Shown here: positions 9,294-43,123 of the stretch, piece after piece
Layout: each line of letters starts with the position of its first letter
Numbering within the stretch: the stretch's first letter is position 1
Assembly (NCBI GenBank): GCA_963768175.1
Contig: CAVYGQ010000001.1
Coordinates: forward strand, 638,305-702,304
DNA: 64,000 nucleotides
Direction: 5' to 3'
From: Candidatus Doudnabacteria bacterium
GTDB lineage: Bacteria > Patescibacteriota > Doudnabacteria > UBA920
The notes under the pieces: model-generated
Seen by the model: the letters and a program-made list of their open reading frames with translations, nothing else
What the model was told of the DNA's origin: nothing
Databases searched by the model: none
Translations under genes and position numbers: made by a program

Positions 9294-9355
9294 CATACAA
9301 ACATTTAAACATCATAGACTTTACTTATATGTTTAAATGCTTAAATGCTTGTATG
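9294..9355. repeat. AT-rich palindromic repeat at a gene junction inside an operon (catttaaacat / atgtttaaatg family)
   Basis: catttaaacatacaaacatttaaacat...atgtttaaatgcttaaatgcttgtatg lies exactly between the two FtsX genes. Confidence 0.6.
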
Positions 9356-9356
9356 A

Positions 9357-10628
9357 TTATTCGTATCTCAGCGCTTCTATCGGATCTAAATTACTTGCCT
9401 TAAAAGCCGGGTATAGCCCAAATACCACGCCGGTTAATATGGAAACGCCGACAGCCAGAACTACCGAGGTTATGGAAACCACAAACGCCCAATCGTAGCC
9501 TAAAGAGTGCATTAACAATGAAATAAGATAGGAAACAACCACGCCGATAATAATCCCCACCACTCCGCCAAGGCTGGTTAAGGTTCCGGCTTCCAGTAAA
9601 AATTGGTTGCGGATGGCCCCGTTTGTCGCCCCCACGGCTTTGCGCAAACCAATTTCCCTGGTGCGCTCGCCGACCGTGGCCATCATAATATTTAAAATGC
9701 CAATCCCGCCGACAATTAAGGCGACTGCGGCCATGGCGGTTAAAAACAGCGTTAAGGCGTTGGTAATAGTGCTCAGAATGCTCACGGCGTCGGCAATGTT
9801 GCGCACGGTGAAATCAATATCCGCATCGGATTTTATATGGTGCGCTTCGGTTAAAACCGCAGTGACATCATTTACGGTCTGATTAACATTATCGGCAGAG
9901 TCAACTTTTATATTTATGGCCTGCAAATAATTTATCCCTAAAATTTGCTGCTGGCCAATGACCAACGGTAAAAATATTGCATCATCCTGGTCCTGGAAAA
10001 ATGAGCTGCCGCGCGGGGTGATTACGCCGATAACGCGCAAGGGTATGCCGCCGGGCTGGGTTTGGGAAGAGCTGCGGACTTTAACTACCTGGCCGATTGG
10101 GTCAACGCCGCTGCCCCCAAATAGCTCATTGGCCACGGTTGAGCCCAAAACCACAACGTTGGCGTTGCCCTGGTCCTGCTGCTGGCTAAAAAACTGGCCT
10201 TCCTGCATGGTAAAACTTATGACACTGGGATAGTTATAGTCGGTGCCCGTAAAGTTGGTATCCACGCTCTGGCTTTCCCAGGTTACGGTAACGCTGCCGC
10301 GCACCATGGTGTTGACGGCAGCGGCATGCGGCACCCTGGTGGAATCGCGCAAGGCTGCGGCGTCGTTGGCGGTCAGGGTTGTAACCACGATGCCAAACAG
10401 CTGGGCGGGCGGGCCTTTGTCGTTGCTCTTGCCCGGCTGCACGCTAAGTAAGTTAGATCCAAGTTTGGTAATCTGCCCTAAAACCAAAGACTGGGCGCCG
10501 GCACCCAGCGCTATTATGATTATGACTCCGGCCACACCGATAACAATTCCCAAGATAGTCAAAAACGACCGGCCTTTGCGGGCCTGCAGCGTGCGGAAGA
10601 TGAGTTTGAAGGTGGAAAGGAAATTCAT
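9357..10628 (-). CDS. MacB/FtsX-family ABC transporter permease
   Basis: 423 aa. N-terminal TM helix, large extracytoplasmic domain, C-terminal FtsX domain with three TM helices, ending ...LDPIEALRYE. Confidence 0.8.
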   Translation of the reverse strand: MNFLSTFKLIFRTLQARKGRSFLTILGIVIGVAGVIIIIALGAGAQSLVLGQITKLGSNLLSVQPGKSNDKGPPAQLFGIVVTTLTANDAAALRDSTRVPHAAAVNTMVRGSVTVTWESQSVDTNFTGTDYNYPSVISFTMQEGQFFSQQQDQGNANVVVLGSTVANELFGGSGVDPIGQVVKVRSSSQTQPGGIPLRVIGVITPRGSSFFQDQDDAIFLPLVIGQQQILGINYLQAINIKVDSADNVNQTVNDVTAVLTEAHHIKSDADIDFTVRNIADAVSILSTITNALTLFLTAMAAVALIVGGIGILNIMMATVGERTREIGLRKAVGATNGAIRNQFLLEAGTLTSLGGVVGIIIGVVVSYLISLLMHSLGYDWAFVVSITSVVLAVGVSILTGVVFGLYPAFKASNLDPIEALRYE

Positions 10629-10630
10629 AA

Positions 10631-10718
10631 ATCATTTTAACATTTTATCATATTATCATTTTAACAAAACAGCGGTATTACATGTTAAAATGATAAAATG
10701 TTAGTATGATAAAATGAC
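10631..10718. repeat. AT-rich palindromic repeat at a gene junction (cattttaacat variant with compensatory arms)
   Basis: atcattttaacattttatcatattatcattttaac...gttaaaatgataaaatgttagtatgataaaatg lies between the FtsX permease and the ABC ATPase. Confidence 0.6.
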
Positions 10719-11434
10719 TACTTTACCAGTTCCTTATCCGGTGTGGCAATGGTGCGCTTAACAACGGATTCATCGTCAATAATATTCCCGTCTTTAATGC
10801 GGATAATGCGCCTGGCGTGGTTGGCGGTATCCATTTCGTGCGTAACCAAAATAATGGTGTGCCCGTCGTTATTTAGCCTTTGCAGAATTTCCATGACAAT
10901 GTTTCCGGACCTGGAATCCAGGTTCCCGGTCGGTTCATCGGCAAAAATAACAGCCGGCTCGCAAACCAAGGCGCGGGCAATGGCCACGCGCTGTTTTTCC
11001 CCGCCGGAAATTTGGTTGGTAAAGTAGTCAAGGCGATGGGAAAGCCCCACGGACTCCAAGGCCTTTTTTGCCAATTCTTCCTGGTCTTTCTTCTTGCTGT
11101 AAATTAAAGGCAGTTTTACGTTATCCAAAACGCTGGTGCGCGCCAAGAGGTTAAACGACTGGAACACAAAACCAACGCGCTCATTCCTTAACTCCGCCAG
11201 ATAATCGTCGGAAAAGTCTTTGGTGTTACGGCCTTCAAATTCGTACAGACCGCTGGTCGGACGGTCCAAAAAACTTAAAATATGCATCAAGGTGGATTTG
11301 CCGGAGCCCGAGGGGCCCATAATCGCCACAAATTCGCCGGAGTCTATGGTAAAACTCAGACCGTGGAGAACGGGAGTGACAACACCTTCGTTGGTGTAAT
11401 CTTTTTTTAAGTTTTGGACTTTGATTAGGTTCAT
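10718..11434 (-). CDS. ABC transporter ATP-binding protein (MacB/LolD-type)
   Basis: Walker [10 protein letters not shown], signature [15 protein letters not shown], Walker [13 protein letters not shown]. The true start is probably [13 protein letters not shown] at 11434, because the 8 codons before it belong to the intergenic repeat. Confidence 0.9.
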
Positions 11435-11510
11435 GTAAACATTTAAGCATGTAAACATTTAAGCATATGGCAGCATGTTTAGATGCTTATATGCTTTAAT
11501 GTTTAAATGA
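11435..11510. repeat. AT-rich palindromic repeat at a gene junction
   Basis: catgtaaacatttaagcatgtaaacatttaagcat...atgtttagatgcttatatgctttaatgtttaaatg lies between the ABC ATPase and the HlyD-family gene. Confidence 0.6.
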
Positions 11511-13088
11511 TTATTGCTTAATATACGTCACCACTGTCTGGCCTTCGCTTAGGCCGGAGGTAATTTCTACCAATCCGCCGTCGGCGGAAAGGCCAGTCTG
11601 CACCTGAACCTGATGGTAAGTTCCCTTTTTTATATCATCGACGACCCTTACATATTGGTTGTTGTTTTGGTTTATAACGGCGCTGCTCGGCACGGCCAAA
11701 ACATTTGATTTTTTGGCGACCAAAATAGTCATATTCGCCGTCATGCCCGGCTTGATATCCGGGATGTTAGGCAAAGCGGCTTTAACAAGGTAGTTAACCA
11801 CGCCGGAGATAACCGTGGAAGCGGGGTTGATAGTCAAAACGCTGCCCGAAAAATGGCGGTCCGGGCCAAGCGCGTCAAAAGTATAATCAACCGATTGCCC
11901 GGGTTGGAGCGAGGCGATATCCGCTTCGGCTACGTCGGCTTCGGCGTGCAAATCGGCCACGTCCTGAAGAATCATAACTTCCTGAAGCGCCACAGCCTGC
12001 TCCCCAATTTTTATATCAACCTGGGTAATCGTGCCGTCTAACGGGGCTTTAAGCACCGTATTGTTTAAATTTACCTGGGCGGAATCCACCTGGCCTTGCG
12101 CGGAAAGAATCTGGGCCTTGGCCACGTCAATATCCGCGGAACTGGCCTGGGCAAGTTCGTTATCTAAAGTAGCCTGCGCCTGGGCCAGCGCGCTTTGCGC
12201 GCTTTGCACCTGGCCTTGCGCGGCCGAAACGGCGCTGGCCTGGGCCTGCAAAGCGGTCTGGTAAGCGTTATAATTGGCAACATAAGCGGGGGCATAAGTA
12301 TTGGGAATACTAACCGTCCAGGTATCGCCCACCGCAGGCGTGGTGTTAAATTGGATATAAAGCCCGAATGTCCCCATTTGGGTGGGCAGATTGCGCACAT
12401 TGCCGGAAACGGTTTCCAGACCAGAAACCTGGAACTGTAAACCGCTGCCGGTGGAGTATAAGCTTATATTATAGATGCCGACATTGGATCCGATATAGGT
12501 ACCGGTAATTATTGGGGTTACCGTGTCGCTATTGCCCGAAGACGCGACGGCGGTAATGGAAGTATTTAAAAGGGTATTATAGGCATTTTTTACCGCCGTC
12601 GCCTGCTGGGCCTGCGTGGTGGCCAGGCTTGTGGTCGCATTACCCAATGCCACTTGGGCGGTATAAACCGCTTGCTGGGTTACCGCAATTTGGGTGTCGG
12701 TGCTGCCCTGCAAGACCTTTTCATAATTTGCCTGCGCCTGCGCCAAACCTCCTTCGGCGGTAGTTAAAGCGGCCGCCGCCGAAGATTGATTTAAGGTAGC
12801 CAAAGTCTGCCCGGCTTTAACCATGTCCCCTTCTTTTACCAAAACTTGAGTTACCACGCCGCTTGACTGGAAACCCAGATTCAAATCGGTACTGCTGACA
12901 ACCTGTCCGGTGCTGAGCACGGTTTGCTGTAAATCCTGTTTTGTCGCGACGGCGGTTTGAATATTACCGGCAGTATTTTTACTTGCGTGGATGCGATAGC
13001 CAATAAACCCAACGACAAGCAAAATAATCACCGTCCAGATAATTTTCTTTTTTGTAAAAAATCCGCGAATTTTTACCCCGTTAGACAT
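11511..13088 (-). CDS. HlyD/MacA-family membrane-fusion (periplasmic adaptor) protein
   Basis: 525 aa. N-terminal TM helix (IIWTVIILLVVGFIGY), long Ala/Gln-rich coiled coil, C-terminal beta-barrel region. First gene of a four-gene exporter operon. The N-terminus MSNGVK is encoded by the TCTAACGGGG repeat. Confidence 0.7.
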   Translation of the reverse strand: MSNGVKIRGFFTKKKIIWTVIILLVVGFIGYRIHASKNTAGNIQTAVATKQDLQQTVLSTGQVVSSTDLNLGFQSSGVVTQVLVKEGDMVKAGQTLATLNQSSAAAALTTAEGGLAQAQANYEKVLQGSTDTQIAVTQQAVYTAQVALGNATTSLATTQAQQATAVKNAYNTLLNTSITAVASSGNSDTVTPIITGTYIGSNVGIYNISLYSTGSGLQFQVSGLETVSGNVRNLPTQMGTFGLYIQFNTTPAVGDTWTVSIPNTYAPAYVANYNAYQTALQAQASAVSAAQGQVQSAQSALAQAQATLDNELAQASSADIDVAKAQILSAQGQVDSAQVNLNNTVLKAPLDGTITQVDIKIGEQAVALQEVMILQDVADLHAEADVAEADIASLQPGQSVDYTFDALGPDRHFSGSVLTINPASTVISGVVNYLVKAALPNIPDIKPGMTANMTILVAKKSNVLAVPSSAVINQNNNQYVRVVDDIKKGTYHQVQVQTGLSADGGLVEITSGLSEGQTVVTYIKQ

Positions 13089-13175
13089 AATTTTGTACTC
13101 CTAAATTGTTAACTTATTAATTTTAATTGAATTTCCCGTCGGCATTAAATAATCAATAATGTCTAACGGGGTGAA
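13074..13175. promoter_or_regulatory. Inverted repeat of the TCTAACGGGG element spanning the HlyD start codon and its 5' leader
   Basis: taccccgttagacat (13074-13088, includes the start codon) and atgtctaacggggtgaa (13159-13175) are complementary. The AGGAG-like Shine-Dalgarno sequence lies in the roughly 70-nt loop. Confidence 0.55.
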
Positions 13176-13198
13176 TAGTAAATAATTTAGATTAATAA

Positions 13199-13534
13199 TT
13201 ACTTATTTTTAAATTGGGAAAACATTTTCCCCATATTTTTTTCAACATATTCCCTAACTTCTTTATTCGCGCCGCTGCCGGAAAAATTTTGCATAATTAT
13301 TTTGACAAAGCTCTCCATTTGGTCGGTCTTTATAAACCCAAGGACCTTGCCGAACTTGCCCATAACCATAAGCTGGTCGCCGGGACTGAGGCCAAGGTCT
13401 TTGCGGGCGTCGGCCGGGATAACCACCTGCCCCCTGGCCCCCATGGTCGTAGTTCCATAGAGCCTGTCCTGGCTGGTCATTTTTTTGTGGATTTTTAAAT
13501 GTAGATTGCTTTTCACCCCGTTAGAAGTAGCCAT
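13199..13534 (-). CDS. AbrB/MazE/SpoVT-family swapped-hairpin DNA-binding protein with an N-terminal extension
   Basis: MGARGQVVIPADARKDLGLSPGDQLMVM is the AbrB-type domain. The roughly 30-aa N-terminal extension MATSNGVK... is encoded by a TCTAACGGGG element. Confidence 0.65.
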   Translation of the reverse strand: MATSNGVKSNLHLKIHKKMTSQDRLYGTTTMGARGQVVIPADARKDLGLSPGDQLMVMGKFGKVLGFIKTDQMESFVKIIMQNFSGSGANKEVREYVEKNMGKMFSQFKNK

Positions 13535-13598
13535 TTTAAATGTCCTTTTAAAATTTTACCGACCCCTAGTTAGAAATACTGCTTCTAACGGGGTTCAT
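13512..13598. promoter_or_regulatory. Three copies of the CCCCGTTAGAA / TTCTAACGGGG motif around the AbrB-like start that can form alternative hairpins
   Basis: Start-region copy at 13512-13534, and upstream copies cccctagttagaa (13563-13575) and cttctaacgggg (13582-13593). A tiny upstream ORF (ATGAACCCCGTTAGAAGCAGTATTTCTAACTAG) overlaps the upstream hairpin. Confidence 0.45.
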
Positions 13599-13696
13599 AA
13601 AATTCCTTCCGGATTAAGGCTGATAAAAAAAGTATGATATTTCATACTTATCATATCATGGCTAAAAACTGTTGTCAATAGCCCGCTGGACCTAAT

Positions 13697-15238
13697 TTAG
13701 ACACTGAGGACGAATTTAATTTTTTCTGCCAAGCCATTATGGTTTAGGATATCGTTTTCGGTTATATCCAAAAATCTATTATCCCTGCCTTTGGCCGGAG
13801 TAATGACCTTATAAATCTCCGGCAAAGCAACGTCTATGCTCTCTCCCAACGTAATTTTAGAGGCCAGTTGCCGATATTTTTCGTAAATTCCCGGACCGCT
13901 TTGCAAAAACAAATCCAAAATAGTAGGTTTATAAATCTGCCCCTCTTGATTTAGGCCAAAAGCCAAACAGCTTTCCGCAAAATTTTCCGTCGGGATTGAG
14001 GCCACACGGGCGGCCATATCCGTTTCCCCCCACTCTTTCAATAAATTAACAAATATTTCTTTAATTCCGGCCAGCCAATTAACCTGATTAAAGCCGCCCA
14101 AGCAAGTTATACCATAATACAACAAAACCAAAAAACATACCAAAGAAGTGGGATAAAGGCTACCGTTTTGCAGACCATTAATAACAGTTTCTACGTTTGC
14201 GGCTATAACAAAATTGCCATTAGACAATTGGTCTTTTTGGCGCGCCAAACGTATTCTCTTTCCTTTGTCGCCAATCCCCCAAAATAAAAAACTGCCTTTA
14301 TGGCCACCGCTAAACCCAGCTCCATTTTTTTCACCATAATATCCGTTTGGTTTATTAATACCAAGCTTATTTTCCAAATGAGGCGCGTCGGTTGATTGTG
14401 AAAAATGGGGCTGGGTAAAGGCGCCAAGGCTGGCTTGAAAATGTTGTTCTATGCTGTCCCATCCAGGGAAAGTAAAAAATAACTTGTGTAAAATATGGCC
14501 TTTTCGTGGCGCAATTTCATTAATAATCAATTCATTGACCAATTTTTCCAGAGGCAAGTATAAAAGTTTAGGTGCCTCTGGAAAAGCCTTTCCCCAAAGC
14601 GCTGTTGAAATAATGGCAGCTTGTTCGGAAAAATCACTGAATGCAAAAAGCTTGGGATCCTGAAAAATTTCCCCCATAAGCCCAAGTAGCCGCTGCTTAT
14701 TATTTTTAGATAAAAAATCCGCGGTTTCAATACGGCTTTCAACGCGCGCTGCGTCTTCCGGACTAAACTCTTTGACCGCCAAGACTGTCTGGGTTTTAAT
14801 TTTATCGCGGAAAAAAGAGAACCGCTCTGTCCGGCCGTCCGGCCGGCTAAGCAGCAAGCAGCCCGGCCAGGAAGAATTGTTCAGGGACACGCCGGCGGTG
14901 GAAAGGCAGAGCAAATATTTTAACCCCTGGCGCTGGCTGTAAATTAAATTGGAATTAATGAAAAACGGATGATTTAAAATGCCGTGGTGATCTATGGTAG
15001 AGACCAGCGGGCTTTGGCCGGTTTGCTTTACAACATCGCCTGCCAAATCCGCCGGATAAACCCGCAAAAGCAACCTCTGGGCTTGGCTAAAAAAAGCCCG
15101 GGTGCCCTCCGAAGGACTGGAAACGGCCCAACCGCGGACATAACCAGACAGGCTTTGGGTTCCAGCCTGGGCATAAATCTTGGCTAAAGTTTTCTGCTTG
15201 GCAAAAATCTCATTTTTAAGCTCGGCAAAATTATTCAT
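13697..15238 (-). CDS. Hypothetical 513-aa protein, no recognisable family
   Basis: Long uninterrupted ORF. Sits between the pilin gene and the AbrB-like/exporter cluster. Confidence 0.45.
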   Translation of the reverse strand: MNNFAELKNEIFAKQKTLAKIYAQAGTQSLSGYVRGWAVSSPSEGTRAFFSQAQRLLLRVYPADLAGDVVKQTGQSPLVSTIDHHGILNHPFFINSNLIYSQRQGLKYLLCLSTAGVSLNNSSWPGCLLLSRPDGRTERFSFFRDKIKTQTVLAVKEFSPEDAARVESRIETADFLSKNNKQRLLGLMGEIFQDPKLFAFSDFSEQAAIISTALWGKAFPEAPKLLYLPLEKLVNELIINEIAPRKGHILHKLFFTFPGWDSIEQHFQASLGAFTQPHFSQSTDAPHLENKLGINKPNGYYGEKNGAGFSGGHKGSFLFWGIGDKGKRIRLARQKDQLSNGNFVIAANVETVINGLQNGSLYPTSLVCFLVLLYYGITCLGGFNQVNWLAGIKEIFVNLLKEWGETDMAARVASIPTENFAESCLAFGLNQEGQIYKPTILDLFLQSGPGIYEKYRQLASKITLGESIDVALPEIYKVITPAKGRDNRFLDITENDILNHNGLAEKIKFVLSV

Positions 15239-15964: not shown

Positions 15965-16095
15965 TTGATAAAATCGGCAAAATGTTGTAAAATATCGTAG
16001 ATACTATCAAAACTATTAACGATTTACTATTAACAATTAACTAATCCGTGTTTGGGTTAATTGTCAATTGTTAATAGTTAATTGTAATTCTACCC

Positions 16096-16208: not shown

Positions 16209-16469
16209 ATGTTCTATATTTATATACTCCTACAAAATAACAACCTGCCATATACTGGTTTTACTGATAATTTAAAACGCAGATATAAACAACACACGGA
16301 CGGACTAGTAACATCAACAAAGCATAAAAGGCCATTAAAACTAATTCATTACGAAGCATATTTATTAAAAACAGATGCCGTGAGAAGAGAAAAATTTTTA
16401 AAAACCACCGAAGGAAAAAGGTTGTTAAAACAGCAAATTAGAGATATATTAATTAAGCTCAAAGTGTAA
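16209..16469 (+). CDS. GIY-YIG nuclease domain protein (homing-endonuclease-like)
   Basis: IYILLQNNNLPYTGFTDNLKRRYKQH is the GIY-YIG motif. 86 aa. Lies between tRNA-like sequences. Confidence 0.65.
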   Translation: MFYIYILLQNNNLPYTGFTDNLKRRYKQHTDGLVTSTKHKRPLKLIHYEAYLLKTDAVRREKFLKTTEGKRLLKQQIRDILIKLKV

Positions 16470-16481: not shown

Positions 16482-16555
16482 GGGTCTGTAGCTCAGTTGG
16501 TAGAGCAGCGGCCTTTTAAGCCGTTTGTCGCGGGTTCGATCCCTACTCGCTACAT
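16482..16555 (+). pseudogene. Degenerate tRNA-Lys(UUU)-like copy: 5' two-thirds intact, T-stem and acceptor 3' strand do not pair
   Basis: GGGTCTG-TA-GCTC-AGTTGGTA-GAGC-A-GCGGC-CTTTTAA-GCCGT-TTGTC-GCGGG-TTCGATC, then CCTAC/TCGCTAC, which do not complement. Confidence 0.4.
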
Positions 16556-16584
16556 CTCGCCTTAAAAAAACTTAATAAATTTGA

Positions 16585-16660
16585 GGGACGGTAGCTCAGC
16601 TGGTAGAGCAGCGGCCTTTTAAGCCGTTTGTCCCGGGTTCGATCCCCGGCCGTCCCACCA
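16585..16660 (+). tRNA. tRNA-Lys (anticodon UUU), 76 nt with encoded CCA
   Basis: GGGACGG-TA-GCTC-AGCTGGTA-GAGC-A-GCGGC-CTTTTAA-GCCGT-TTGTC-CCGGG-TTCGATC-CCCGG-CCGTCCC-A-CCA. All stems pair. Confidence 0.85.
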
Positions 16661-19072: not shown

Positions 19073-19615
19073 ATGAAATTTTTTATAAACATAAACCAAG
19101 AAAAACTCATTGAACTGGCGCCGGAAGCGAGGCTCACTGACGGAGCAGTCATGGACTACGTTTATTGGCTATGTTCCAGCCCCAGTCAGGAAGTGGAAAA
19201 TTGCCGGATTATATTTAACGGCGAAAAGTATACCTGGGTAAATTACGACTGGCTGATTCAGGATATGCCTTTGTTAAAAGGGAAAAGCAAATCAACCCTG
19301 ACTCCGGTGTTCAAGCGGCTCGAAAAATGGGGCTTTATTAAAACCCATCAGATAGCCAGTGGAAGAAAGCATGTGCATCTTGTGGATAAGGCCGACCTAC
19401 TGTTCAGAAATCAGAACAGTCCCATTCGGAAAACAAAACAGGGCCGTTTCGCAAACGAAACTAATCATATTACTACTGACCAGACTACTAAATCCCTAGG
19501 GCAAATCCCAAAAAATTATGAAGGCATAAATAAACTAAATGCCATCAAACAAAAGTTTTTAGCAAAAAATTCAATGTCAATTAACCAGACTAATACAACG
19601 AAAGGAATAATATGA
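19073..19615 (+). CDS. Hypothetical protein (possible DNA-binding protein)
   Basis: 180-aa ORF whose stop overlaps the start of the HU gene. Confidence 0.4.
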   Translation: MKFFININQEKLIELAPEARLTDGAVMDYVYWLCSSPSQEVENCRIIFNGEKYTWVNYDWLIQDMPLLKGKSKSTLTPVFKRLEKWGFIKTHQIASGRKHVHLVDKADLLFRNQNSPIRKTKQGRFANETNHITTDQTTKSLGQIPKNYEGINKLNAIKQKFLAKNSMSINQTNTTKGII

Positions 19616-19911
19616 AGCGCTCAAATCAGATTAACAAGGCGGAATTCGTCGAGGAACTTGCGGCTGTGATTCGGCTTACCGCCAGCGAAACCGAACACAT
19701 TGTCAACACTTTTATAAAAATGATTTATACCCACCTGCACCAGGGTGAAATGGTCAACCTGTCCGGCTTTGGCAAGTTCAGCGTTTCCCATCGCGCATCC
19801 CGAATAGGCATCAACCCCCGTTCCCCCGAACAGAAAATAACCATCCCGGAACTTAATACGCCGAAGTTTAAGGCTGGCGAAGCCTTTAAAGAAGCGGTAA
19901 AATTAAGATAG
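19612..19911 (+). CDS. HU/IHF-family DNA-binding protein
   Basis: GFGKFSVSHRASRIGINPRSPEQKITIPELNTPKFKAGEAFKEAV is an HU arm motif. Confidence 0.75.
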   Translation: MKRSNQINKAEFVEELAAVIRLTASETEHIVNTFIKMIYTHLHQGEMVNLSGFGKFSVSHRASRIGINPRSPEQKITIPELNTPKFKAGEAFKEAVKLR

Positions 19912-19949
19912 CTTAACTTTTACATATGCCCAAACCCACGCATTAACAA

Positions 19950-20141
19950 ATGGCCGAATATGAAGAATGGCTAAAGCAGCACCCGGATGCAGCCCCCTCT
20001 TCCGAGGTCGCCAGAAGCGTAATTGACGACGACATGGCCGAAGCCGAAGAGCACGAGCGCAAACGCGCCAACTGGAGCAGGGAGTATAATGCCAAGGAAA
20101 TCAGTCCCGCCTCCAAGCCTAAATTGGCAGAAAAAGAATAA
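19950..20141 (+). CDS. Hypothetical acidic small protein
   Basis: 63-aa ORF. Confidence 0.3.
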   Translation: MAEYEEWLKQHPDAAPSSEVARSVIDDDMAEAEEHERKRANWSREYNAKEISPASKPKLAEKE

Positions 20142-20354
20142 ATACAATGCCCGAAAACCAAAGGGATTACAACCACTTACTTGTGACCCAGGCCTCTGGA
20201 CAAGACCGTAAACAGAGAGTAAAATGGGCAGTTATAGCCATGGCTGTGATAGCCTGTGTTATAATTTGGCTATTAATACATACAGTAACTCGGACGTAAA
20301 TGTTTGTGTCCGGTTTGCTGTATGTAATCCCATTCATGTAGGAGGAAGTAGATA

Positions 20355-20780
20355 GTGGCAACTGTCGAACAAGGGCTTAGTGATGTAATCACTAAATCAG
20401 TTGATCTGGGCTTACTTAGCGAGCCCGGATACCGCGCAGGCGTGATTCAAGGAGTGTGCCGTGTACGGGCATTCCTGAATAGCTCGCAAGATCATGCGAG
20501 CCTGACCCAAGCGCAGATAACCGCCAATCTTAAGGCGGAGAAAAGGAGATTCAACGAGGAAGTGCGGCAAATGACGGCAAACGATTCCGCTCTGGAACGC
20601 GCTGCCAACCATCGGCCGAGAGTATCAAAAGCCGTACTGGAGCCGGACATGGACGCCAATGCAATCTCGGTTCCTGATGACTGGACGCCGCCGGAAAAGA
20701 TGCCGGAACACTTGCGACTGCACTCGAGACAGCCGCAGGCCATCCCGGCCTTCGCCGTCAACGCCCTCGCCTGTTGCTAA
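20355..20780 (+). CDS. Hypothetical protein, GC-rich
   Basis: 141-aa ORF. The region 20.3-21.2 kb is GC-rich with overlapping alternative-frame ORFs, so calls here are uncertain. Confidence 0.35.
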   Translation: MATVEQGLSDVITKSVDLGLLSEPGYRAGVIQGVCRVRAFLNSSQDHASLTQAQITANLKAEKRRFNEEVRQMTANDSALERAANHRPRVSKAVLEPDMDANAISVPDDWTPPEKMPEHLRLHSRQPQAIPAFAVNALACC

Positions 20781-22710: not shown

Positions 22711-22749
22711 GGACTAGAGGCTCTTGTATTTTGAGCCTTGAACCCTTGA

Positions 22750-22781: not shown

Positions 22782-22788
22782 GAAATTT

Positions 22789-24164: not shown

Positions 24165-24184
24165 GTCTGGTAAAAAAACGATGA

Positions 24185-32357: not shown

Positions 32358-33455
32358 ATGGATCCAATTCAGACACATCATTATTTCAGACAAATCAGCC
32401 AGGAATTTCTGGTGTATTGCCAGTTTGGAAAAGAAACGCCGGTCGCTAAAACAACCCTGATAGGCTACGGGCGCGGGATGAAGTTGATGAATAAAATATT
32501 TGGCGACAAGCCGATAGAAGAACTGGATAGCAACGATGTACTACTTTTGAGAAAATCCATTTTGGAACGCGGCTGTACTTTAAGCTATCTGCATAGAATC
32601 CTGAGCATGCTTCGCTCCGTCCTCCGCTATTGCCGCGAAGAAAGGGATATGGAAATATTGCCACCGGAAAAAATCAAACTGCCTAAAATAAAATGGCGGG
32701 ACGTGGAGTTCTACAGCGTCAGCCAGGTGGAAAAAATTATTTCCGAGATTCAGACCATGACGATCCACGGCATCCGTCTGATGGCGGTAGTGGCCGGTTT
32801 CCTGGACAGCGGCATGCGCATCTCGGAGCTTCTTTCCCTGGACCGCGCCAGCATAGATTACGGGGACGGCAGCGCTTACATAATTGGCAAAGGCGGCAAA
32901 CAAAGGAAAGTCTTTTTCAGATCATGGTCAATGGACTGGATGCAAAAATATCTGGCACAGCGAACTGACAATAATCCAGCGATGTTCGTGGTTCACCACG
33001 CAGGCTACGAGTTAGTCAGATTAAGGCCGGAAGACGTCCGGAAAATGCTGCGGAGGATATCCAAAACCGTGGGCTTTGGGATAAGACCGCATGCCTTAAG
33101 AAGAACTTTTGCCACCCTCCTGCACGGCAATGGCGTGGACATAAGGTTTCTACAAGCCCTGCTTGGCCATTCTTCGGTACAGGTAACGGAGCGTTACGTA
33201 GGCGTCGACCAAGTCATGCTTAAGGCAATGGTTAACACCAGAATGAACTACGGCCTGGCTGAAGCGGTCACATCCAACCTGGCAGCTATCCGCTGGGCCA
33301 AGGGATATGATCAGTGCATAGAGTGTGGACAAACCAGGCGGCCCCACCTTGCCAGAGGCTATTGCGACAGCTGCTACATGAACGCTAGGAACCATCAGGA
33401 GCTCAATAAACACGGGGTTTTGACGCTACAGGGAGTTGCGTTACAGCCAGCCTAA
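32358..33455 (+). CDS. Tyrosine integrase with a C-terminal zinc-ribbon extension
   Basis: HALRRTFATLLHGNGVDIRFLQALLGHSSVQVTERYVGV (R, H-x-x-R, Y). C-terminal CIECG...CDSCY. Confidence 0.85.
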   Translation: MDPIQTHHYFRQISQEFLVYCQFGKETPVAKTTLIGYGRGMKLMNKIFGDKPIEELDSNDVLLLRKSILERGCTLSYLHRILSMLRSVLRYCREERDMEILPPEKIKLPKIKWRDVEFYSVSQVEKIISEIQTMTIHGIRLMAVVAGFLDSGMRISELLSLDRASIDYGDGSAYIIGKGGKQRKVFFRSWSMDWMQKYLAQRTDNNPAMFVVHHAGYELVRLRPEDVRKMLRRISKTVGFGIRPHALRRTFATLLHGNGVDIRFLQALLGHSSVQVTERYVGVDQVMLKAMVNTRMNYGLAEAVTSNLAAIRWAKGYDQCIECGQTRRPHLARGYCDSCYMNARNHQELNKHGVLTLQGVALQPA

Positions 33456-36137: not shown

Positions 36138-36140
36138 AGG

Positions 36141-36974: not shown

Positions 36975-38168
36975 CTAAAAACTGCCTTTGATATTCTCCC
37001 ACAAACTTTCATCAACATTTACCGCTTCACCGCGCTCGGAAGCGAGCTGTTTTAGGAGTTCTTTTTCTTTTTTGGAAAGTCTTTGCGGCACGACAACGCG
37101 CACGGTGACCAAAAGATCGCCGCGGCGGGAGGGCTCGTTTATATGTGGCACGCCCTTGCCTTTAACTTTTAAGACTGTGCCGCTTTGGATACCGGACGGA
37201 ATTTTAAGTTCTATGTTGCCATCCAGAGTTTTTAAAATAATTTTTGCACCCAAAGCCGCTTGGGTAAAACTTACCGGCAATTCTTTAAGCAAAGTAGAGC
37301 CGTCGCGTCCAAACTCTTTGGAGGGCGAAACTTTAACCACTAAATATAAATCCCCGTGGCTACTGCCGCGGTAGCCGGCCTCGCCCTCGCCGGCAATCCG
37401 CACGCGCTGGCCGTTGTCTATACCGGCGGGGATTTTTACCATAATGGTTTTTTCCTGGCGCAACACGCCGTTGCCTCTACAAGTTGCACAGGGCACTTCG
37501 GGTATTTTGCCCATACCCTGGCAGCGGTCGCAACTGACAGAAGAAGCCACGGTGCCAAAAATGGTGCGCCGCTGCTGACGGATTTGCCCCTGGCCGTGGC
37601 ATTGGGGACAAGTAATAACTTTGCTTCCCGGAGCCGCGCCGTTGCCTCCGCAGGTTTTACAGGCATCTTGTTTTTCCAAAGTCAGAGTTTTTTCCACACC
37701 GAAAACCGCTTGCTCAAAGGTGATGTTGATGCCCATTTCCAAATCTATGCCGCGCATACGCCGGCTTTGTCTTTCGGCGGAACGGCTGCCGAACATGTCG
37801 CCAAAAATATCTCCCAAGTCTCCGCCGAAGGCGGATCCGCCTTCGGCGGAAAACCCACCAAAATCAAAACCGCCAAAATCAAACCCCCCAAAAGGATTCC
37901 CGCCATAGGCGGGTCCGCCTCCGGCGGAAAAACCTCCGCCGCCATTTCTGGCGGCGTCTTCAAAAGTCTGGCCGTACTGGTCGTACTGCTGGCGTTTTTG
38001 CGAATCCGAAAGCACCTGATAAGCCTGGTTGACTTCCTTAAATTTATCCGCGTTGCCGCTGCCTTTGTCGGGGTGGTATTCGTGCGCCTTTCTGCGGAAA
38101 GCCTTTTTTATTTCATCAGCCGAAGCGGACTTTGGGATTCCTAAAATGTCGTAGTAGTCTTTAGCCAT
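36975..38168 (-). CDS. dnaJ: Molecular chaperone DnaJ
   Basis: J-domain ([32 protein letters not shown]), G/F-rich linker, and four CxxCxGxG zinc-finger repeats. Confidence 0.9.
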
Positions 38169-38170
38169 AA

Positions 38171-38250
38171 ATCATTTAAACATACAAACATTTAAACATA
38201 TAAGCAATTCCAGCATGTTTAAATGCTTAGATGCTTCCATGTTTAAATGA
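38171..38250. repeat. AT-rich palindromic repeat at a gene junction (catttaaacat family)
   Basis: atcatttaaacatacaaacatttaaacat...atgtttaaatgcttagatgcttccatgtttaaatga. Lies between the DUF3467-like gene and dnaJ. Confidence 0.6.
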
Positions 38251-38252
38251 CC

Positions 38253-38552
38253 TTACTCTGTCCTAAACCCAATTTTGTGTTCCGGCTGGTCGGAGGATTT
38301 TATCGCGCCGTATTGTTGCTCAAAACTTTTTAAATTATCCTGCATGGCCGCAACCACGCGCTTCATATGAGAAGGCGACAGGATTACGCGCGCCGAAACA
38401 ATACCCGAAGGCGGAAATATATTCATAAAATCCAAGACAAATTCTTCCGGCCCGTGGCCAACCTGAACCATATTGGCATAAACACCTCTTAAGACGTCAT
38501 CGGGGATTTTAACTTGTATCTGTTGCCCTTGTGGGGCTTGTTCTTGAGCCAT
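38253..38552 (-). CDS. Small conserved hypothetical protein (DUF3467-like)
   Basis: 99 aa. YANMVQVGHGPEEFVLDF. Confidence 0.45.
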   Translation of the reverse strand: MAQEQAPQGQQIQVKIPDDVLRGVYANMVQVGHGPEEFVLDFMNIFPPSGIVSARVILSPSHMKRVVAAMQDNLKSFEQQYGAIKSSDQPEHKIGFRTE

Positions 38553-38646
38553 AAATTTTCCAAAAGCTTCTACGAAATACTAAATAAACGAAATACGAAA
38601 AATGCAGATTTGGTATTTAGTGACTTTCATATTTCGTAGAAATTAA

Positions 38647-39387
38647 TTATTGTAAGCTCGCTTTAATATTATTTATCTCATTAACTTCCGCCGGGCAAAA
38701 ATCCTGCGGCTCAAGGCGGCCAAAGCTCTCCAAAGGCTGGCCGTTAAGTCCGGCATGTAGGTTCATAATACAAGAAGTGTCGGTCCCCTGCTCGGGTAAG
38801 CCAATTTGATTGCCAAACTCATGAAGCAAGTCGGAAAGCAAATAATTATCCAAGTCTTGCGAATAGCTTGCCAAAAACTGCCGGTTGGCGTTTAAAGAAA
38901 CTACTATGGCTGTTTCACCGTGGGTGGTGGAAAGCTCCCCGCTGCCTTTCGGCTGATAATCGGTGGCAAATACCGCATAGATGACGCTTGATCCGGAAGG
39001 CGGGGACGATGCCTTAAAGGCTAAATTATTTACTGTGGCTAGTGGAATTACACCTTCCGAAACGGCAGCGCCAAAAATCACCTCAGTCGGCCTGCCGGTG
39101 TATTTGCCGGCCAAATCCGCAAATTTCTGAAGCACTGTACTGTCTACATTTTCGCTAACCGGCTGGAACCATTCAATAACCAAAGGTGAGGTGCCTTCCA
39201 AATATTCTGCCCTGGCATCGCCTTTATTGTGGAGGCCGAGCAATGTCCTTATAACAGGATGCCTGGCCAACACAAAACGCGTAGTCTGGTTAAAATGGCT
39301 GTTTGGGTCGCCACCGGCTTCCAGCTTCAAGTAAATGAAGACCCCGAGAAACAAAACCAAAACAATCAGGAAGATGGCTTTGAGAGA
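38647..39387 (-). CDS. Secreted/membrane-anchored hypothetical protein with a degenerate zincin-like HEFGN motif
   Basis: Start placed at MSLKAIFLIVLVLFLGVFIYL (TM/signal). The upstream part of the track ORF is built from intergenic repeats. LHEFGNQIG has N where HExxH would have H. Confidence 0.45.
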   Translation of the reverse strand, partial: SLKAIFLIVLVLFLGVFIYLKLEAGGDPNSHFNQTTRFVLARHPVIRTLLGLHNKGDARAEYLEGTSPLVIEWFQPVSENVDSTVLQKFADLAGKYTGRPTEVIFGAAVSEGVIPLATVNNLAFKASSPPSGSSVIYAVFATDYQPKGSGELSTTHGETAIVVSLNANRQFLASYSQDLDNYLLSDLLHEFGNQIGLPEQGTDTSCIMNLHAGLNGQPLESFGRLEPQDFCPAEVNEINNIKASLQ

Positions 39388-39400
39388 CATAAGAAGTAAT

Positions 39401-39439
39401 GAGCAAAAATGACAAAAATGAGCAAAAATGAGCAAAAAC
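39401..39439. repeat. Tandem 10-mer repeat (gagcaaaaat, 4 copies) next to a gagggatc-family hairpin element
   Basis: gagcaaaaatgacaaaaatgagcaaaaatgagcaaaaac. No spacers, so it is not a CRISPR array. Confidence 0.6.
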
Positions 39440-39618
39440 GGCAGGCTGCTGCCGTCCCGAACGAAGTGAGGGATCCCTCTCTCGGCTGCACTCGCTCGGG
39501 ATGACAACTATATTATAAACAGTCGTTTGTCATTTATGTCAATTTTGTCGTTTTTTTAATTTTTATCATTTATTTATCAGGGTGAACTTCCTTAAATTCC
39601 GCGTCCACCGGGCCTGGG

Positions 39619-41514
39619 TTAGACCCTGAACCTGCCGAAGGGTTGTCCGATGATGGGCCGGCCGCTCCGGCGTTCTGATTTTCTCCGCCAGAGGCGGATC
39701 CGCCTTCGGCGGACGACTTTCCGGACTCTGTACATTGCCGCGCCAACCTTTTGGATGGCTTCGGAAAGCGCGTCCATGGCTTTTTTAATGTCGTCTATAT
39801 CGTCTTTGTCTTTGACCTCTTTAAGCGCTTTAATTTTTTCTTCCACCGCGGTTTTGTCTTCCGCTTTGAGCTTTGAGCCGGTCGCAGACCCCGATCCTGC
39901 CGAGGCGGCATCTTTTAAAGTTTTTTCGGAAATCGAAATTAACGTGTCGGCCTGGTTCCTCATATCCACGGTTTCTTTGCGCTTGCGGTCTTCCTCGGCA
40001 TGGGCTTCGGCTTCTTTTTTCATGCGCTCAATCTCATCCTTCTTTAAATTAGAAGAGCCCTGGATGGTAATATGCTGTTCTTTACCCGTAGCTTTGTCCT
40101 TGGCTTTTACGGTCAAAATTCCGTTGGCATCTATATCAAAGGTCACTTCCACTTGCGGGATGCCGCGCGGCGCCGGCGGGATGCCGTCCAAAATAAACTG
40201 GCCCAAAGATTTATTGTCGCGCGCGAATTCCCGTTCGCCCTGCAAAATATGGATTTCCACCGATGTCTGGTTGTCGGCCGCGGTGGAAAAAGTCTGCGAC
40301 TTGGATGTTGGAATAGTGGTGTTGCGATCGATTAGTGGCGTGCGCACCCCGCCCAAAGTTTCAAGGCCCAAGGTCAAAGGCGTTACGTCCAAAAGCAAAA
40401 TTTCCTTGCTCTGGACATCGCCGCCCAAAATGCCGCCCTGGATAGCCGCGCCCTTGGCCACGGCTTCCATGGGGTCTATGCCGCCTTCCACCTGCTTGCC
40501 AATGTAAGTTTCCACAAACTTTCTCACGCTGGGCATTCTGGTCGGGCCGCCAATTAAAATAATTTTATCTATTTGCTGGGGCGTCAGTTTGGCATCGCTA
40601 AGTGCCTGCTCTAGCGGCTTCCGCATTTTTTCAATGAGCGGCTTAATCAGCTCTTCCAGTTTGGCGCGCGTCACTTTAAGCTGAAAATGTTTTGGTCCGT
40701 TGGCGTCCGCGGTTATAAAAGGAAGATTAATGTCGGTTTCCATTGTGGTGGACAGTTCAATTTTGGCTTTTTCCGCGGCTTCCCTGACGCGGTTTATGGC
40801 CATTTTGTCTTTGGTGATGTCCACGCCGCTTTCGTTTTTAAAAGCCGCGACCAAATAATCTATCAAAACTTTGTCCATATCTTTGCCGCCCAAAGCCGTG
40901 TCGCCGGAAGTGGATTTAACTTCAAAAGTCGCCTGATTGTCCACTTCGGAAAAATCCATAATCGTAACGTCCAGCGTGCCGCCGCCCAAATCAAACACTA
41001 AAATTTTCTGATCTTTAGCCGATGTCTTATCAAGGCCGTAAGCAAAAGCCGCAGCCGTGGGCTCATTAATTACGCGCACAACTTCCAGACCGGCAATTTC
41101 CCCGGCATTTTTGGTAGCTTGCCTTTGCGCGTCGTCAAAATAAGCCGGCACGGTGACCACGGCTTTGGTTACCGGAGCGCCCAAAAAGGTTTCCGCGTCT
41201 TTTTTGATTTTTTGCAAAATAAACGCGCTAATTTGCTCCGGAGTGTATTCCTTGCCGTTAACGTTATATTTAAAACTGGTTCCCATTTTTCTTTTGGCTT
41301 CAAACACCGTGCCGTCCGGATTGGTCACGGCCTGCCTTCTGGCCGGCTCGCCAACCAAAAGCTGGCCTTCCTTGGTAAAAGCCACATACGATGGAAAAGC
41401 TTTCCCGCCCACAGACGCGCCCTCGGCCGAAGGAATAATTACCGGTTTGCCGGCTTCCATAACACTAGCCGCGCTGTTGCTTGTCCCTAAGTCTATCCCT
41501 ATAATTTTTGACAT
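39619..41514 (-). CDS. dnaK: Molecular chaperone DnaK (Hsp70) with an apparent +1 frameshift in the C-terminal tail
   Basis: Canonical Hsp70 motifs throughout ([29 protein letters not shown]). After ...KVGAAMY the listed frame gives an Arg-rich tail ([16 protein letters not shown]...). The adjacent frame encodes [52 protein letters not shown], a typical DnaK C-terminus, ending near 39573. Confidence 0.9.
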
Positions 41515-41637
41515 ATATTTCTCCTTGTCGCCTGCAGCCCTCCTCTCCCTACTTGTCCGCCATAGCTTTGAGCTTCGGCGGATGGGAGAGGATTAAGGCG
41601 AGGGTAAATGATTCTTGATAATTAAATTAGAAATAAA

Positions 41638-41877
41638 TTATAAATTATTTTTTTCAAAATCAACATAAACATAATTTGGACTATGTAATGCTCCGGACGC
41701 AATATTACTTGATATGTTCGCAATAGGGCATCCTTGATCGGAAACTTTTATTATTAATACTGGAGAATTATTTTTTTCTGGGATATGTTCTAAAAAAATA
41801 CTATTACTACCTAAAACGGTCACCAACAAAATAATAAATATGAAACTGATAATTTTTTTATTATAATACTTTTTCAT
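41638..41877 (-). CDS. Small secreted hypothetical protein
   Basis: 79 aa with a signal-like N-terminus (IISFIFIILLVTVLG). Confidence 0.4.
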   Translation of the reverse strand: MKKYYNKKIISFIFIILLVTVLGSNSIFLEHIPEKNNSPVLIIKVSDQGCPIANISSNIASGALHSPNYVYVDFEKNNL

Positions 41878-41915
41878 ATATTCTGTAATTCCCTTAAAAG
41901 CGGCGATCCGTTCTA

Positions 41916-42035
41916 TTACTTATTTTCTAATTCTTTAATTCTTTCTTCTAATTTATCAACTCTGTTATCTGTTCTTATACCATCCCATATTATTCCAACC
42001 ACAGCCCCAATAAGCGTAATAATGATTATCCACAT
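41916..42035 (-). CDS. Small single-TM protein (39 aa), paralog of the 70-aa gene upstream
   Basis: MWIIIITLIGAVVGIIWDGIRTDNRVDKLEERIKELENK has the same TM-plus-EERI(K/R)xLEN(K/R) C-terminal layout as the 42087..42299 product. Not in the ORF track because it is under 60 aa. Confidence 0.4.
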   Translation of the reverse strand: MWIIIITLIGAVVGIIWDGIRTDNRVDKLEERIKELENK

Positions 42036-42058
42036 AACTTTATTTTTTAATTATTTAT

Positions 42059-42080
42059 CATTCCCGCGAAAGCGGGAATC
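42059..42080. repeat. GNRA-tetraloop hairpin element (cattcccgc-GAAA-gcgggaatc) in the 5' region of a small gene
   Basis: A longer variant lies at 42311-42353 and a degenerate copy at about 41885-41912. Each precedes one of three tandem small genes. Confidence 0.5.
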
Positions 42081-42086
42081 TTTTAA

Positions 42087-42299
42087 TTATCTATTTTCTA
42101 ATTGTCTTATTTTTTCTTCTAGATCTTCCCTTTCATCATCCTTATCCATATCGGCAACAATCATCCCTACAAAAAATCCTACTATATATTGAGTGCCACC
42201 ATATCCTATATGAAAAATCGCGCCAAAAATTGCTCCCACAATAATCGCCACAACCGCTATAGATAATCCAATTAAAAATTGCTTAATAAAATGCCACAT
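42087..42299 (-). CDS. Small membrane protein (70 aa), probably two TM helices
   Basis: MWHFIKQFLIGLSIAVVAIIVGAIFGAIF...FFVGMIVADMDKDDEREDLEEKIRQLENR. Confidence 0.45.
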   Translation of the reverse strand: MWHFIKQFLIGLSIAVVAIIVGAIFGAIFHIGYGGTQYIVGFFVGMIVADMDKDDEREDLEEKIRQLENR

Positions 42300-42310
42300 A
42301 AATTTATTTT

Positions 42311-42353
42311 GTCATTCCCGCGCCTACCTGCGGTAGGCAGGAAAGCGGGAATC
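42311..42353. repeat. Nested hairpin element of the cattcccgc...gcgggaatc family
   Basis: gtcattcccgcgcctacctgcggtaggcaggaaagcgggaatc. Confidence 0.5.
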
Positions 42354-42481
42354 TTATTACCATTTCGACCGGAGGGAGAAATCTATTCATTAACAGATCT
42401 CTCGCTGCGCTCGAGATGGCGCTTAGGTTGATTTTTTCTTACTAATTAAAGATCCCTCGGATGCACTCGGGATGATTACTA

Positions 42482-43051
42482 TTATTCGCCACCTTTGGTG
42501 GCTTTCTTACTGATAATCACTTGGCTTGGCCTAATAACTTTCCCGTTCAGTTCAAACCCTGTTTGCAATTCATCGATAATAATTCCGTCATCTTTTTCCG
42601 TTTCAACCTCGCGCACGGCTTCGTGAAAATGCGGGTCGAATTTTTTTCCGATGGATTCGATTTTTTTGACGCCTAAATCTTCCAAAGTTTTATCCAGTTG
42701 CTTCAACAAAACATTGATGCCGTCTTGCCAGTTTTGGTATTGCTTGGCAAATTCTCGATAGGGAAGAGGTGTCCCCTCTTCCAGAGGGGACACCTCTTCC
42801 AAAACCGGCATATGCCTTAGCGCCAGCTCCAGGCTGTCTATTGTCGGTAAAAGTTTAATCACCGTGACTTCGCGCGCGAACTCCACCAATTCCTTATTCT
42901 CCCCTTCCTTGCGGCGCTTGTAATTTTCAAAATCCGCGGCCGTGCGCTTCCATCCCGCCATGGCGCTTTCAAAATCGGTTTGGAGCTTTTCCAGCGTTAT
43001 TTCGCCGTTCTGGTTTTGGTCGTCTTGTTGTTGTTCGTCAGACATAATCAT
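42482..43051 (-). CDS. grpE: Nucleotide exchange factor GrpE
   Basis: 189 aa. Coiled-coil N-terminal part and C-terminal GrpE domain (KLLPTIDSLELAL...FDPHFHEAV). Confidence 0.85.
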   Translation of the reverse strand: MIMSDEQQQDDQNQNGEITLEKLQTDFESAMAGWKRTAADFENYKRRKEGENKELVEFAREVTVIKLLPTIDSLELALRHMPVLEEVSPLEEGTPLPYREFAKQYQNWQDGINVLLKQLDKTLEDLGVKKIESIGKKFDPHFHEAVREVETEKDDGIIIDELQTGFELNGKVIRPSQVIISKKATKGGE

Positions 43052-43123
43052 TTAAACATTTAAGCATCTAAGCATGTAAACATACTCGGATTGTTTAAAT
43101 GTTTGTATGTTTAAATGCTTAAA
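43047..43123. repeat. AT-rich palindromic repeat at a gene junction (catttaaacat family)
   Basis: atcatttaaacatttaagcatctaagcatgtaaacat...tttaaatgtttgtatgtttaaatgcttaaat. Lies between hrcA and grpE. Confidence 0.6.

Follow-up and report, generated by a model that had tools for sequence, protein, structure and literature searches.

The stretch of Candidatus Doudnabacteria DNA considered here (assembly GCA_963768175.1, contig CAVYGQ010000001.1, positions 638,305 to 702,304; 64,000 nucleotides, hereafter the window) carries on its minus strand two operons whose gene junctions are occupied by a family of AT-rich palindromic repeats. The exporter operon (8025-13088) comprises genes for HlyD (11511-13088; HlyD_D23/HlyD_3 domains), an ABC ATPase (10718-11434; ABC_tran) and two MacB-FtsX proteins (MacB_PCD and FtsX), the first at 9357-10628 and the second at 8276-9280 plus 8025-8252. 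The chaperone cluster (36975-43879), likewise assigned through Pfam, contains hrcA (43124-43879), grpE (42482-43051), dnaK (39619-41514), a gene for a 286-aa protein (38647-39507), a DUF3467 gene (38253-38552) and dnaJ (36975-38168), of which dnaK and hrcA have nucleotide similarity to locus L107, also from Candidatus Doudnabacteria. A first-pass annotation of the window had listed five palindromes and placed them between co-directional minus-strand genes; all five are present where it located them, they measure 78-86 bp, and the Pfam assignments bear out their placement in the stop-to-start spacers of the two operons, which they fill.

Three copies, minus-strand like the other two, lie in the exporter operon. 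Copy 1 (9276-9357) occupies the junction between MacB-FtsX 1 and MacB-FtsX 2: its arms (9276-9308 and 9325-9357) are 82% complementary across a 16-nt loop, the upstream stop is at 9357-9359, and the downstream ATG, at 9280 or 9277, falls within or beside the last repeat unit. Copy 2 (10632-10717), at the ABC ATPase/MacB-FtsX 1 junction, is built of a variant unit, CATTTTAW, in arms (10632-10666 and 10683-10717) that are 86% complementary, and is bounded by a stop at 10718-10720 and an ATG at 10626-10628. Copy 3 (11431-11510; arms 11431-11466 and 11475-11510, 83% complementary) separates HlyD from the ABC ATPase, with the stop at 11511-11513 and with the ATG of its last unit (11432-11434) serving as that of the ABC ATPase gene itself. 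The remaining two copies, whose stems have a G+C content of 21-22%, belong to the chaperone cluster. Copy 4 (38172-38250; arms 38172-38203 and 38219-38250) lies between DUF3467 and dnaJ, flanked by a stop at 38253-38255 and the dnaJ ATG at 38166-38168, and copy 5 (43047-43124; arms 43050-43082 and 43092-43124) lies between hrcA and grpE. The longest inverted-repeat call for copy 5 begins at 43047 and the refined stem runs from 43050 to 43124, so placed that the upstream stop (43124-43126) shares one nucleotide with the stem base and the grpE ATG is at 43049-43051.

All five elements share one anatomy, in which about four tandem octamers of the form CATNTAAR and about four in inverted form, YTTANATG, are separated by an 8-16 nt loop, and the termini are TCAT...ATGA. 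The loops contain no open reading frame (ORF) and show no similarity to one another. Allowing at most one mismatch, the 11-mer CATTTAAACAT matches 26 times against 2.6 expected, a count reached in 0 of 100 shuffles, and 22 of the 26 matches fall inside the five elements. Copies 1 and 4 further have an identical 27-mer, CATTTAAACATACAAACATTTAAACAT, in common; this identity exceeds what a degenerate unit consensus would predict and therefore supports a multi-copy family. An Rfam scan of the window placed none of the five in a family at gathering score, matching only two tRNAs and a LOOT RNA.

The fit of these elements to their junctions is close. Between the stem base and the upstream stop there are 0-6 nt, and between it and the downstream ATG 2-3 nt, unless that ATG is the last unit's own. 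Because the unit has a period of 8, the sequence presents TAA in all three frames of both arms and ATG in all three frames of the 3' arm; the latter accounts for the eight-codon extension MF(T/V)CLNVYM that had been ascribed to the downstream ORFs at large and that holds for copies 1 and 3 (ORF starts at 9304 and 11458, against 9280 and 11434). The genes downstream of the hairpins lack a Shine-Dalgarno motif, unlike dnaK and HlyD, which have AAGGAG and UAGGAG. The idea that such a motif sits at the end of the upstream gene and is carried to the AUG by the hairpin was rejected, no motif of this kind preceding the stops, and copies 1-3 are poor candidates for intrinsic terminators or sigma-70 promoters: in a scan of 8000-13800, they contained no promoter or terminator consensus and the counts equalled the shuffled expectation.

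The sense RNA of each element is predicted to form a single long AU-rich hairpin of about -19 to -31 kcal/mol (z = -4.5 to -6.7 relative to dinucleotide shuffles), with individual values of -25.2 (z -4.9), -25.5 (z -6.0), -25.7 (z -6.6) and -30.8 kcal/mol (z -6.3) for copies 1 to 4 and -18.9 kcal/mol for copy 5, the antisense of which folds at -24.1. The stems span 32-36 bp and consist of helices of 6-7 bp broken by single mismatches about every 8 nt. From co-variation of the arms the first-pass annotation had concluded that stem-loops are maintained in the polycistronic RNA, a conclusion that comparison of the strands does not support. Mean fold energies are alike (-25.2 kcal/mol sense, -24.5 antisense), and in 49 gapless junction hairpins with co-directional flanking genes, read in the sense orientation, G.U-type mismatches number 42 and A.C-type mismatches 49 (p = 0.53, with limited power from these 91 informative mismatches), besides 132 transversion mismatches; in the window copies the corresponding numbers are 8 and 9. 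Given that selection for RNA pairing would favour G.U, the lack of a G.U excess means that there is no sense-strand RNA signal, and selection on the sense strand was set aside on the mismatch counts and the fold energies together. The complementarity of the arms arises mostly because both are arrays of one consensus unit, and true covariation is small. Agreement between the arms at the variable positions of the unit is 47% for N4 (31% by chance) and 66% for R8 (50% by chance), observed values that are inflated by choosing the best register, and N4 columns are unpaired in 41-59% of sequences across 22 aligned stems. The co-variation claimed earlier thus stands in part: the variant unit of copy 2 is indeed present in both its arms, but the variable positions match only weakly above chance, and a covariance analysis of the kind then proposed gave a weak excess (85.2% of cells in the 22 stems paired, 81.6% with shuffled partners) that nonetheless lay beyond all 500 shuffles.

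The same junctions were also compared in relatives. The exporter operon keeps its synteny in loci L219-L228, and the chaperone cluster is syntenic with L107 and L119-L145 (tblastn). Where MacB1 is 89-93% identical to that of the window, all three exporter junctions bear hairpins, but of other unit families. At fourfold sites L219, L220 and L222 have an identity of 0.61-0.66 to the window, and L224 one of 0.45 (L220/L221, L222/L223 and L224/L225 are each the same population in two samples, 100% identical and thus without any difference in unit number); the junction hairpins of L219, L220 and L222 are unrelated to those of the window, each still pairing at about 80-90%, and their replacement at this fourfold identity has therefore been faster than neutral-site divergence. 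Hairpins are again present at all three exporter junctions of L227 (77% identity), whereas in L226 (80%) and L228 (75%, Staskawiczbacteria) these junctions are 1-19 nt long and hairpin-free, from which it follows that the hairpins of the window are derived insertions. The chaperone cluster tells the same story. Syntenic hrcA/grpE and DUF3467/dnaJ junctions carry hairpins of unrelated sequence that are again made of short tandem units (ACGCTGAA in L120, CGCAGATA in L122, GTGACAAG in L123, CAGATACG in L126, AGTACTAA in L132, AAATCCAA in L121 and CTAATTAAC in L125). GC-rich palindromes occur at chaperone-cluster junctions of L119 and L120, the dnaJ junction of L119, a close relative, has no hairpin, chaperone junctions in L130-L135 and L138-L145 consist of a 6-10 nt spacer without insertion, and the hrcA/grpE junction is occupied in at least ten close relatives. 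The comparison of orthologous operons that the first-pass annotation had suggested consequently speaks against a conserved regulatory RNA, since the same junctions hold unrelated hairpins or none. The hairpins are derived, fast-turnover insertions into tiny stop-start spacers.

The unit families are also shuffled among junctions and genomes. The CATTTTAW variant is found at the ABC/MacB1 junction in the window and at the HlyD/ABC junction in L220. A second family in the window, with units CTACGAAATAC and TAAATAC, forms an inverted repeat of the same element class at 38568-38641 (minus strand, 286-aa gene/DUF3467 junction; -21 to -26 kcal/mol), and recurs at this junction in L143 and L122 and at the HlyD/ABC junction in L222. 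The TAATTATTC family is found in L219, L222 and L125, and the TTGACAAGA family in L224 and L120, one arm in L224 being an array of 13 tandem 9-mers.

Beyond these operons, a scan with a 27-nt pattern of three units, using one genome per species, returned at least 118 loci. Among the matches listed there is a strong concentration in the Patescibacteria, or candidate phyla radiation (CPR), across many lineages (Saccharibacteria, Moraniibacteriota, Magasanikbacteria, Kuenen-, Nealson-, Portnoy-, Doudna- and Paceibacterota), with several genomes holding multiple loci. At least 27 of the listed elements have the layout of CAT arm, loop and ATG arm, and most are flanked by co-directional genes, 0-10 nt separating the upstream stop from the first unit; in some cases the TAA of a unit is itself the stop. 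The first-pass annotation had stated that copies away from operon junctions and without co-variation would point to a simple miniature inverted-repeat transposable element (MITE), and that picture is partly borne out in other CPR genomes, where there are one-sided CATNTAAR arrays (13 pattern hits over about 120 bp in L046, 17 hits in L070, and others in L009 and L042) and arms that enclose a gene. In 20 loci on viral contigs the units are tandem or interleaved, and none of these forms the CAT-arm/loop/ATG-arm palindrome.

The enclosed gene encodes a PF05635 protein (intervening-sequence protein of 23S rRNA), an Avd-like four-helix bundle. In L011, L046, L079 and L069 a PF05635/TIGR02436 ORF exactly fills the loop between CATNTAAR arms (located by tblastn; PF05635 E values of 1e-22 to 1e-27), its AUG arising where the last CAU of the 5' arm meets a G. 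Both arms match the full 27-nt probe in the first three, and in L069 the right arm alone does so, the left consisting of degenerate CAT-type units. One genome holds both L046 and L079, copies at different loci whose proteins are 97% identical and whose unit numbers differ, and CATNTAAR arms enclose a PF05635 gene in three CPR lineages besides that of the window. At L143 (DUF3467/dnaJ) and L220/L221 (MacB1/MacB2) it is the loop of the junction hairpin that holds the PF05635 gene. All ten PF05635 genes in the loci examined lie between inverted arrays of short tandem units, and seven of them share the orientation of the nearest called gene on either side. The arms around a PF05635 protein of 61% identity, at L068, are built of a different unit, TTAGCAAN, and there is therefore no strict pairing of protein with unit. 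Members of the class thus consist of two inverted arrays of short tandem units with, between them, a PF05635 gene or a short loop of arbitrary sequence.

This structure recalls the intervening sequences (IVS) of ribosomal RNA. In Coxiella, terminal inverted repeats build a stem of 28 bp with an S23p ORF in the loop, RNase III cleaves in mid-stem, tandem heptamers vary in number among strains, and the element is regarded as selfish, although its function and origin are described as unclear (PMC4990558); PF05635 ORFs also occur in rRNA insertions of CPR bacteria (PMC11270868). Like the 23S rRNA IVS of Coxiella and Leptospira (PMC4990558), the present elements have terminal inverted repeats and a long stem that encloses the entire insertion (32-36 bp, against 28 bp in Coxiella), a loop that is nearly empty or holds a sense-oriented PF05635 four-helix-bundle ORF, short tandem repeats of variable number (octamers in place of heptamers), and a position where cutting of the RNA would be harmless. 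They differ in that the five window elements lie between protein-coding genes, whereas the IVS occupies helix 25 or 45 of 23S rRNA, in that their arms consist wholly of tandem units, and in that a genome has many copies from several unit families, and RNase III cleavage is in their case suggested by analogy. Given the CATNTAAR arms around PF05635 ORFs and the likeness to the Coxiella IVS, the window copies look like the ORF-less form, and we favour, with moderate confidence, the reading that all five are ORF-less copies of a mobile palindromic element resembling a ribosomal IVS. We rate them as IVS-like or REP/MITE-like hairpin repeats (REP, repetitive extragenic palindrome), the new feature being tandem-octamer arms at CPR operon junctions; literature searches with the sequence itself and on palindromes of CPR bacteria and Saccharibacteria found, within the library covered, no published description of these junction hairpins.

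If this is so, the elements would insert into the stop-to-start spacers, 1-6 nt long, of operons with tight coupling, persist there, be swapped for other unit families, and lengthen or shorten by whole-unit slippage. Their position implies that they would be transcribed together with the operon, and the predicted AU-rich stem of 32-36 bp, with a mismatch about every 8 bp, should draw the upstream stop and the downstream AUG close to each other. Because the element supplies UAA and AUG and the stem keeps stop and start adjacent, insertion would be nearly harmless. Processing by RNase is plausible from the likeness to the 23S rRNA IVS (PMC4990558): RNase III may cut the stem, as it does in rRNA intervening sequences, parting the cistrons and leaving the downstream gene with a short, unstructured, AU-rich leader. 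Any regulatory effect would then be secondary.

Several observations nevertheless weigh against a mobile, IVS-like origin. The flanks of the five window copies show no target-site duplications, no two of these copies are near-identical, and, their loops being unrelated, recent transposition is not visible. The window lacks both a PF05635 gene with CAT arms and any plausible mobilising enzyme, and neither it nor any other locus examined includes rRNA genes, so that no element inside rRNA was seen. Among the matches listed, the CAT arm is 5' on both strands by about 31 to 1, and in other families NTG triplets tend to be scarcer in the 5' arm of hairpins at co-directional junctions, two features that together hint at selection at the level of RNA or translation. 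In the hairpin-bearing subclade all 18 exporter junctions (six genomes with three each) are occupied, which could mean that the hairpin is now needed, and the residual covariation of the arms, small as it is, also counts against that origin. The strict polarity and complete occupancy are not accounted for by a purely selfish model, and they keep a functional reading alive. Such a reading would make the hairpins selected intercistronic elements that punctuate the polycistronic mRNA, through processing by RNase III or another enzyme, through stabilisation of 3' or 5' ends, or through masking of the downstream start until the upstream ribosome melts the stem base. It can draw, besides the occupancy of the exporter and hrcA/grpE junctions despite turnover, the polarity and the significant covariation, on stems flush with both stop and start and on the missing Shine-Dalgarno motifs downstream. 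Against this, the ancestral junctions in L226, L228, L130-L135 and L138-L145 are tight and hairpin-free and their genes also lack Shine-Dalgarno motifs, the dnaJ junction of L119 does without a hairpin, the strands fold alike with no excess of G.U over A.C in the sense orientation, about half of the cells at N4 positions are unpaired, and the same arms elsewhere hold a selfish-looking ORF. The RNA punctuation that the first-pass annotation had proposed is thus supported by the operon-internal position and the long predicted hairpins and undercut by the equivalence of the strands and the inconstancy of the junctions, and we regard it as rather unlikely. A known parallel is found in the early genes of phage T7, where imperfect RNase III hairpins lie exactly between cistrons and cleavage yields separate mRNAs; those sites are unique, conserved, functional signals, unlike the repeated, mobile and fast-replaced hairpins of the window.

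Other explanations were weighed as well. Palindromic minisatellites might have been made in place, a junction octamer being duplicated by slippage and its inverted arm arising by template switching with no transposition. The unit TTTAAATG is in effect a TAA stop abutting an ATG start and resembles ancestral junctions such as gaaTAAatATG and aaaTAAtctATG, unit numbers may be very unequal (the 13 tandem 9-mers of L224, the one-sided arrays with 13 and 17 pattern hits in L046 and L070), and the unrelated loops and the lack of target-site duplications fit as well; yet one unit family occupies five window junctions and reaches distant CPR lineages with shared 27-mers, the units of other families bear no relation to stop or start codons, families recur at different junctions in different genomes, and one genome has the two 97%-identical ORF-bearing copies at different loci, which together make local origin improbable. 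Alternatively, the octamers could be DNA-level binding sites for a PF05635/Avd-like or nucleoid protein, with hairpin potential a by-product of their inverted arrangement. The dominance of the unit consensus in arm complementarity, the equivalence of the strands, the non-palindromic CATNTAAR arrays and the link of the arms to a gene of nucleic-acid-binding type with a four-helix bundle all agree with such arrays, but an 8-bp spacing sets successive sites on different faces of the helix, no such gene lies near the window copies, and the 61%-identical protein of L068 has the unrelated unit noted above; we consider this very improbable. Least credible, and given next to no weight, is a REP/REPIN identity with movement by a RAYT-type Y1 transposase. 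The window does contain an IS200-like Y1_Tnp ORF (47336-48001), and REPs are likewise palindromes within operons (PMC3333891, PMC3733652). That ORF, however, goes with a different, GC-rich hairpin (GGGGCATCCTTTTG..CAAAAGGATGCCCC, 47484-47524 and 48006-48050; GGGGCATCC), by which it is interrupted and flanked, and the CAT elements are two to three times the length of a REP and have no GTAG or CGTC head.

Comparison with other known repeats helps to place the family. Correia/NEMIS elements of Neisseria and ERIC elements of enterobacteria are short non-autonomous palindromes that often lie in operons, are co-transcribed and fold into hairpins; Correia elements are reportedly cleaved by RNase III, and elements of this kind reportedly alter the stability of flanking mRNA. 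In them the terminal inverted repeats are defined, the interior is conserved and a TA target is duplicated; the window copies have unrelated loops, arms of tandem octamers and no duplication. A MITE of the Correia/NEMIS type was rejected on these grounds, namely flanks without target-site duplication and an interior that is not conserved among copies. REPs and bacterial interspersed mosaic elements (BIMEs) are species-specific extragenic palindromes common between genes of one operon, with a proposed mRNA-stabilising role (PMC3333891, PMC3733652), and in this they are similar; REPs measure 20-40 nt, carry a conserved GTAG or CGTC head and have a cognate RAYT flanked by REPs, none of which applies to the 78-86 bp CAT family. 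Organelle hairpin repeats and palindromic microsatellites (PMC2800124, PMC7218506) likewise invade the intergenic spacers of compact genomes and turn over quickly; they belong to eukaryotic organelles and have no PF05635 link. TIGR arrays, finally, have two alternating repeats of 8-12 nt with 9-nt spacers, in 36-nt units repeated 5-15 times beside a Nop-domain Tas gene (PMC12045711). This identity was rejected as well, the window units being contiguous octamers without spacers in dispersed single palindromes, and Pfam scanning, which covered essentially every called ORF of 80 aa or more other than dnaK, found no Nop-domain protein.

The window and the relatives contain further elements of interest. 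A second hairpin family in the window (13072-13175, 13515-13594 and 46048-46142) pairs an upstream CACCCCGUUAGAC with GUCUAACGGGGUG, which holds the start and first codons (M-S-N-G-V or M-A-T-S-N-G-V) of the HlyD, MazE/AbrB-like and subtilase-like genes. Enclosing the entire 5' untranslated region, including the HlyD UAGGAG, the stem has a fold energy of -27 kcal/mol (z -3.7 to -4.6) and resembles an element, common to the three genes, that sequesters the start codon. Upstream of the MazE-like/HlyD operon, consensus matching at 11 of 12 positions picks out a promoter-like TTGACA-17-TATGAT with TG extension (13678-13650, minus strand). The second MacB-FtsX gene is split, 8276-9304 holding MacB_PCD and only the start of FtsX and 8025-8252 the remainder of FtsX. 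Relatives carry it intact, as a single gene of 416-440 aa, and the split would be explained by an assembly error, a frameshift or a pseudogene. Within the RAYT-like Y1 transposase ORF, the 41-nt GC-rich hairpin AACAAGGGGCATCCTTTTG..CAAAAGGATGCCCCTTGTT is placed inside the reading frame (47484-47524), and a near-identical hairpin stands directly past the stop (48006-48050). The only PF05635 relative in the window is a bAvd-like four-helix-bundle ORF (23787-24164, plus strand), divergent from and adjoining an RVT_1 reverse transcriptase (22789-23808, minus strand). The pair looks like a diversity-generating retroelement; a template/variable repeat pair of at least 40 bp was absent from 19500-25000.

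Mobile and selfish genes are abundant between 16000 and 35600, where a GIY-YIG gene (16209-16469), two tRNAs (16489-16657), AAA_24 and HU genes, the LOOT RNA (21308-21439) and two tyrosine integrases (24750-25604 and 32358-33455) are found; elsewhere the window has a LAGLIDADG-like ORF (2169-2867), an IS3-type transposase (51924-53022) and a HepT/MNT toxin-antitoxin pair (55981-56575). A palindrome of ATTAAC/AATTAAC octamers at 16012-16085, in a divergent intergenic region, resembles the hrcA/grpE hairpin of L107. In L125 a CIRCE-type operator (TTAGCACTC-N9-GAGTGCTAA) lies upstream of hrcA (7053-7118). In the spacers between grpE and dnaK and between hrcA and grpE, L107 (560-1330) and L120 (7865-7946) are filled by GC-rich palindromes of the GTCATTGCGAG and GTCATTCCGGGC types, together with a small GIY-YIG-like ORF; these palindromes constitute another widespread repeat class at the same junctions.

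The IVS and the S23p/PF05635 proteins have been known from 23S rRNA for decades, and the same architecture is here tied to protein-coding operons of the CPR, in whose ultra-small genomes several unit families compete for the same junctions. One practical consequence is that gene callers are led astray by the ATG-rich arms, with two extended ORF starts in the window and starts that look misplaced at several hairpin junctions of relatives. More broadly, we entertain as a tentative possibility, appreciable but well short of even, that the CPR harbours a large and so far undescribed class of messenger-RNA intervening sequences, that is, mobile octamer-arm hairpins that settle specifically in the few-nucleotide spacers between stop and start of translationally coupled operons, whose arrays a PF05635 partner binds and which RNase III excises, so that operon punctuation is selfishly rewritten and the rRNA IVS has its origin here. 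If RNase III does cut these stems, gene expression in these organisms would be shaped by a fast-moving selfish element, and the PF05635 family would gain a testable nucleic-acid target.

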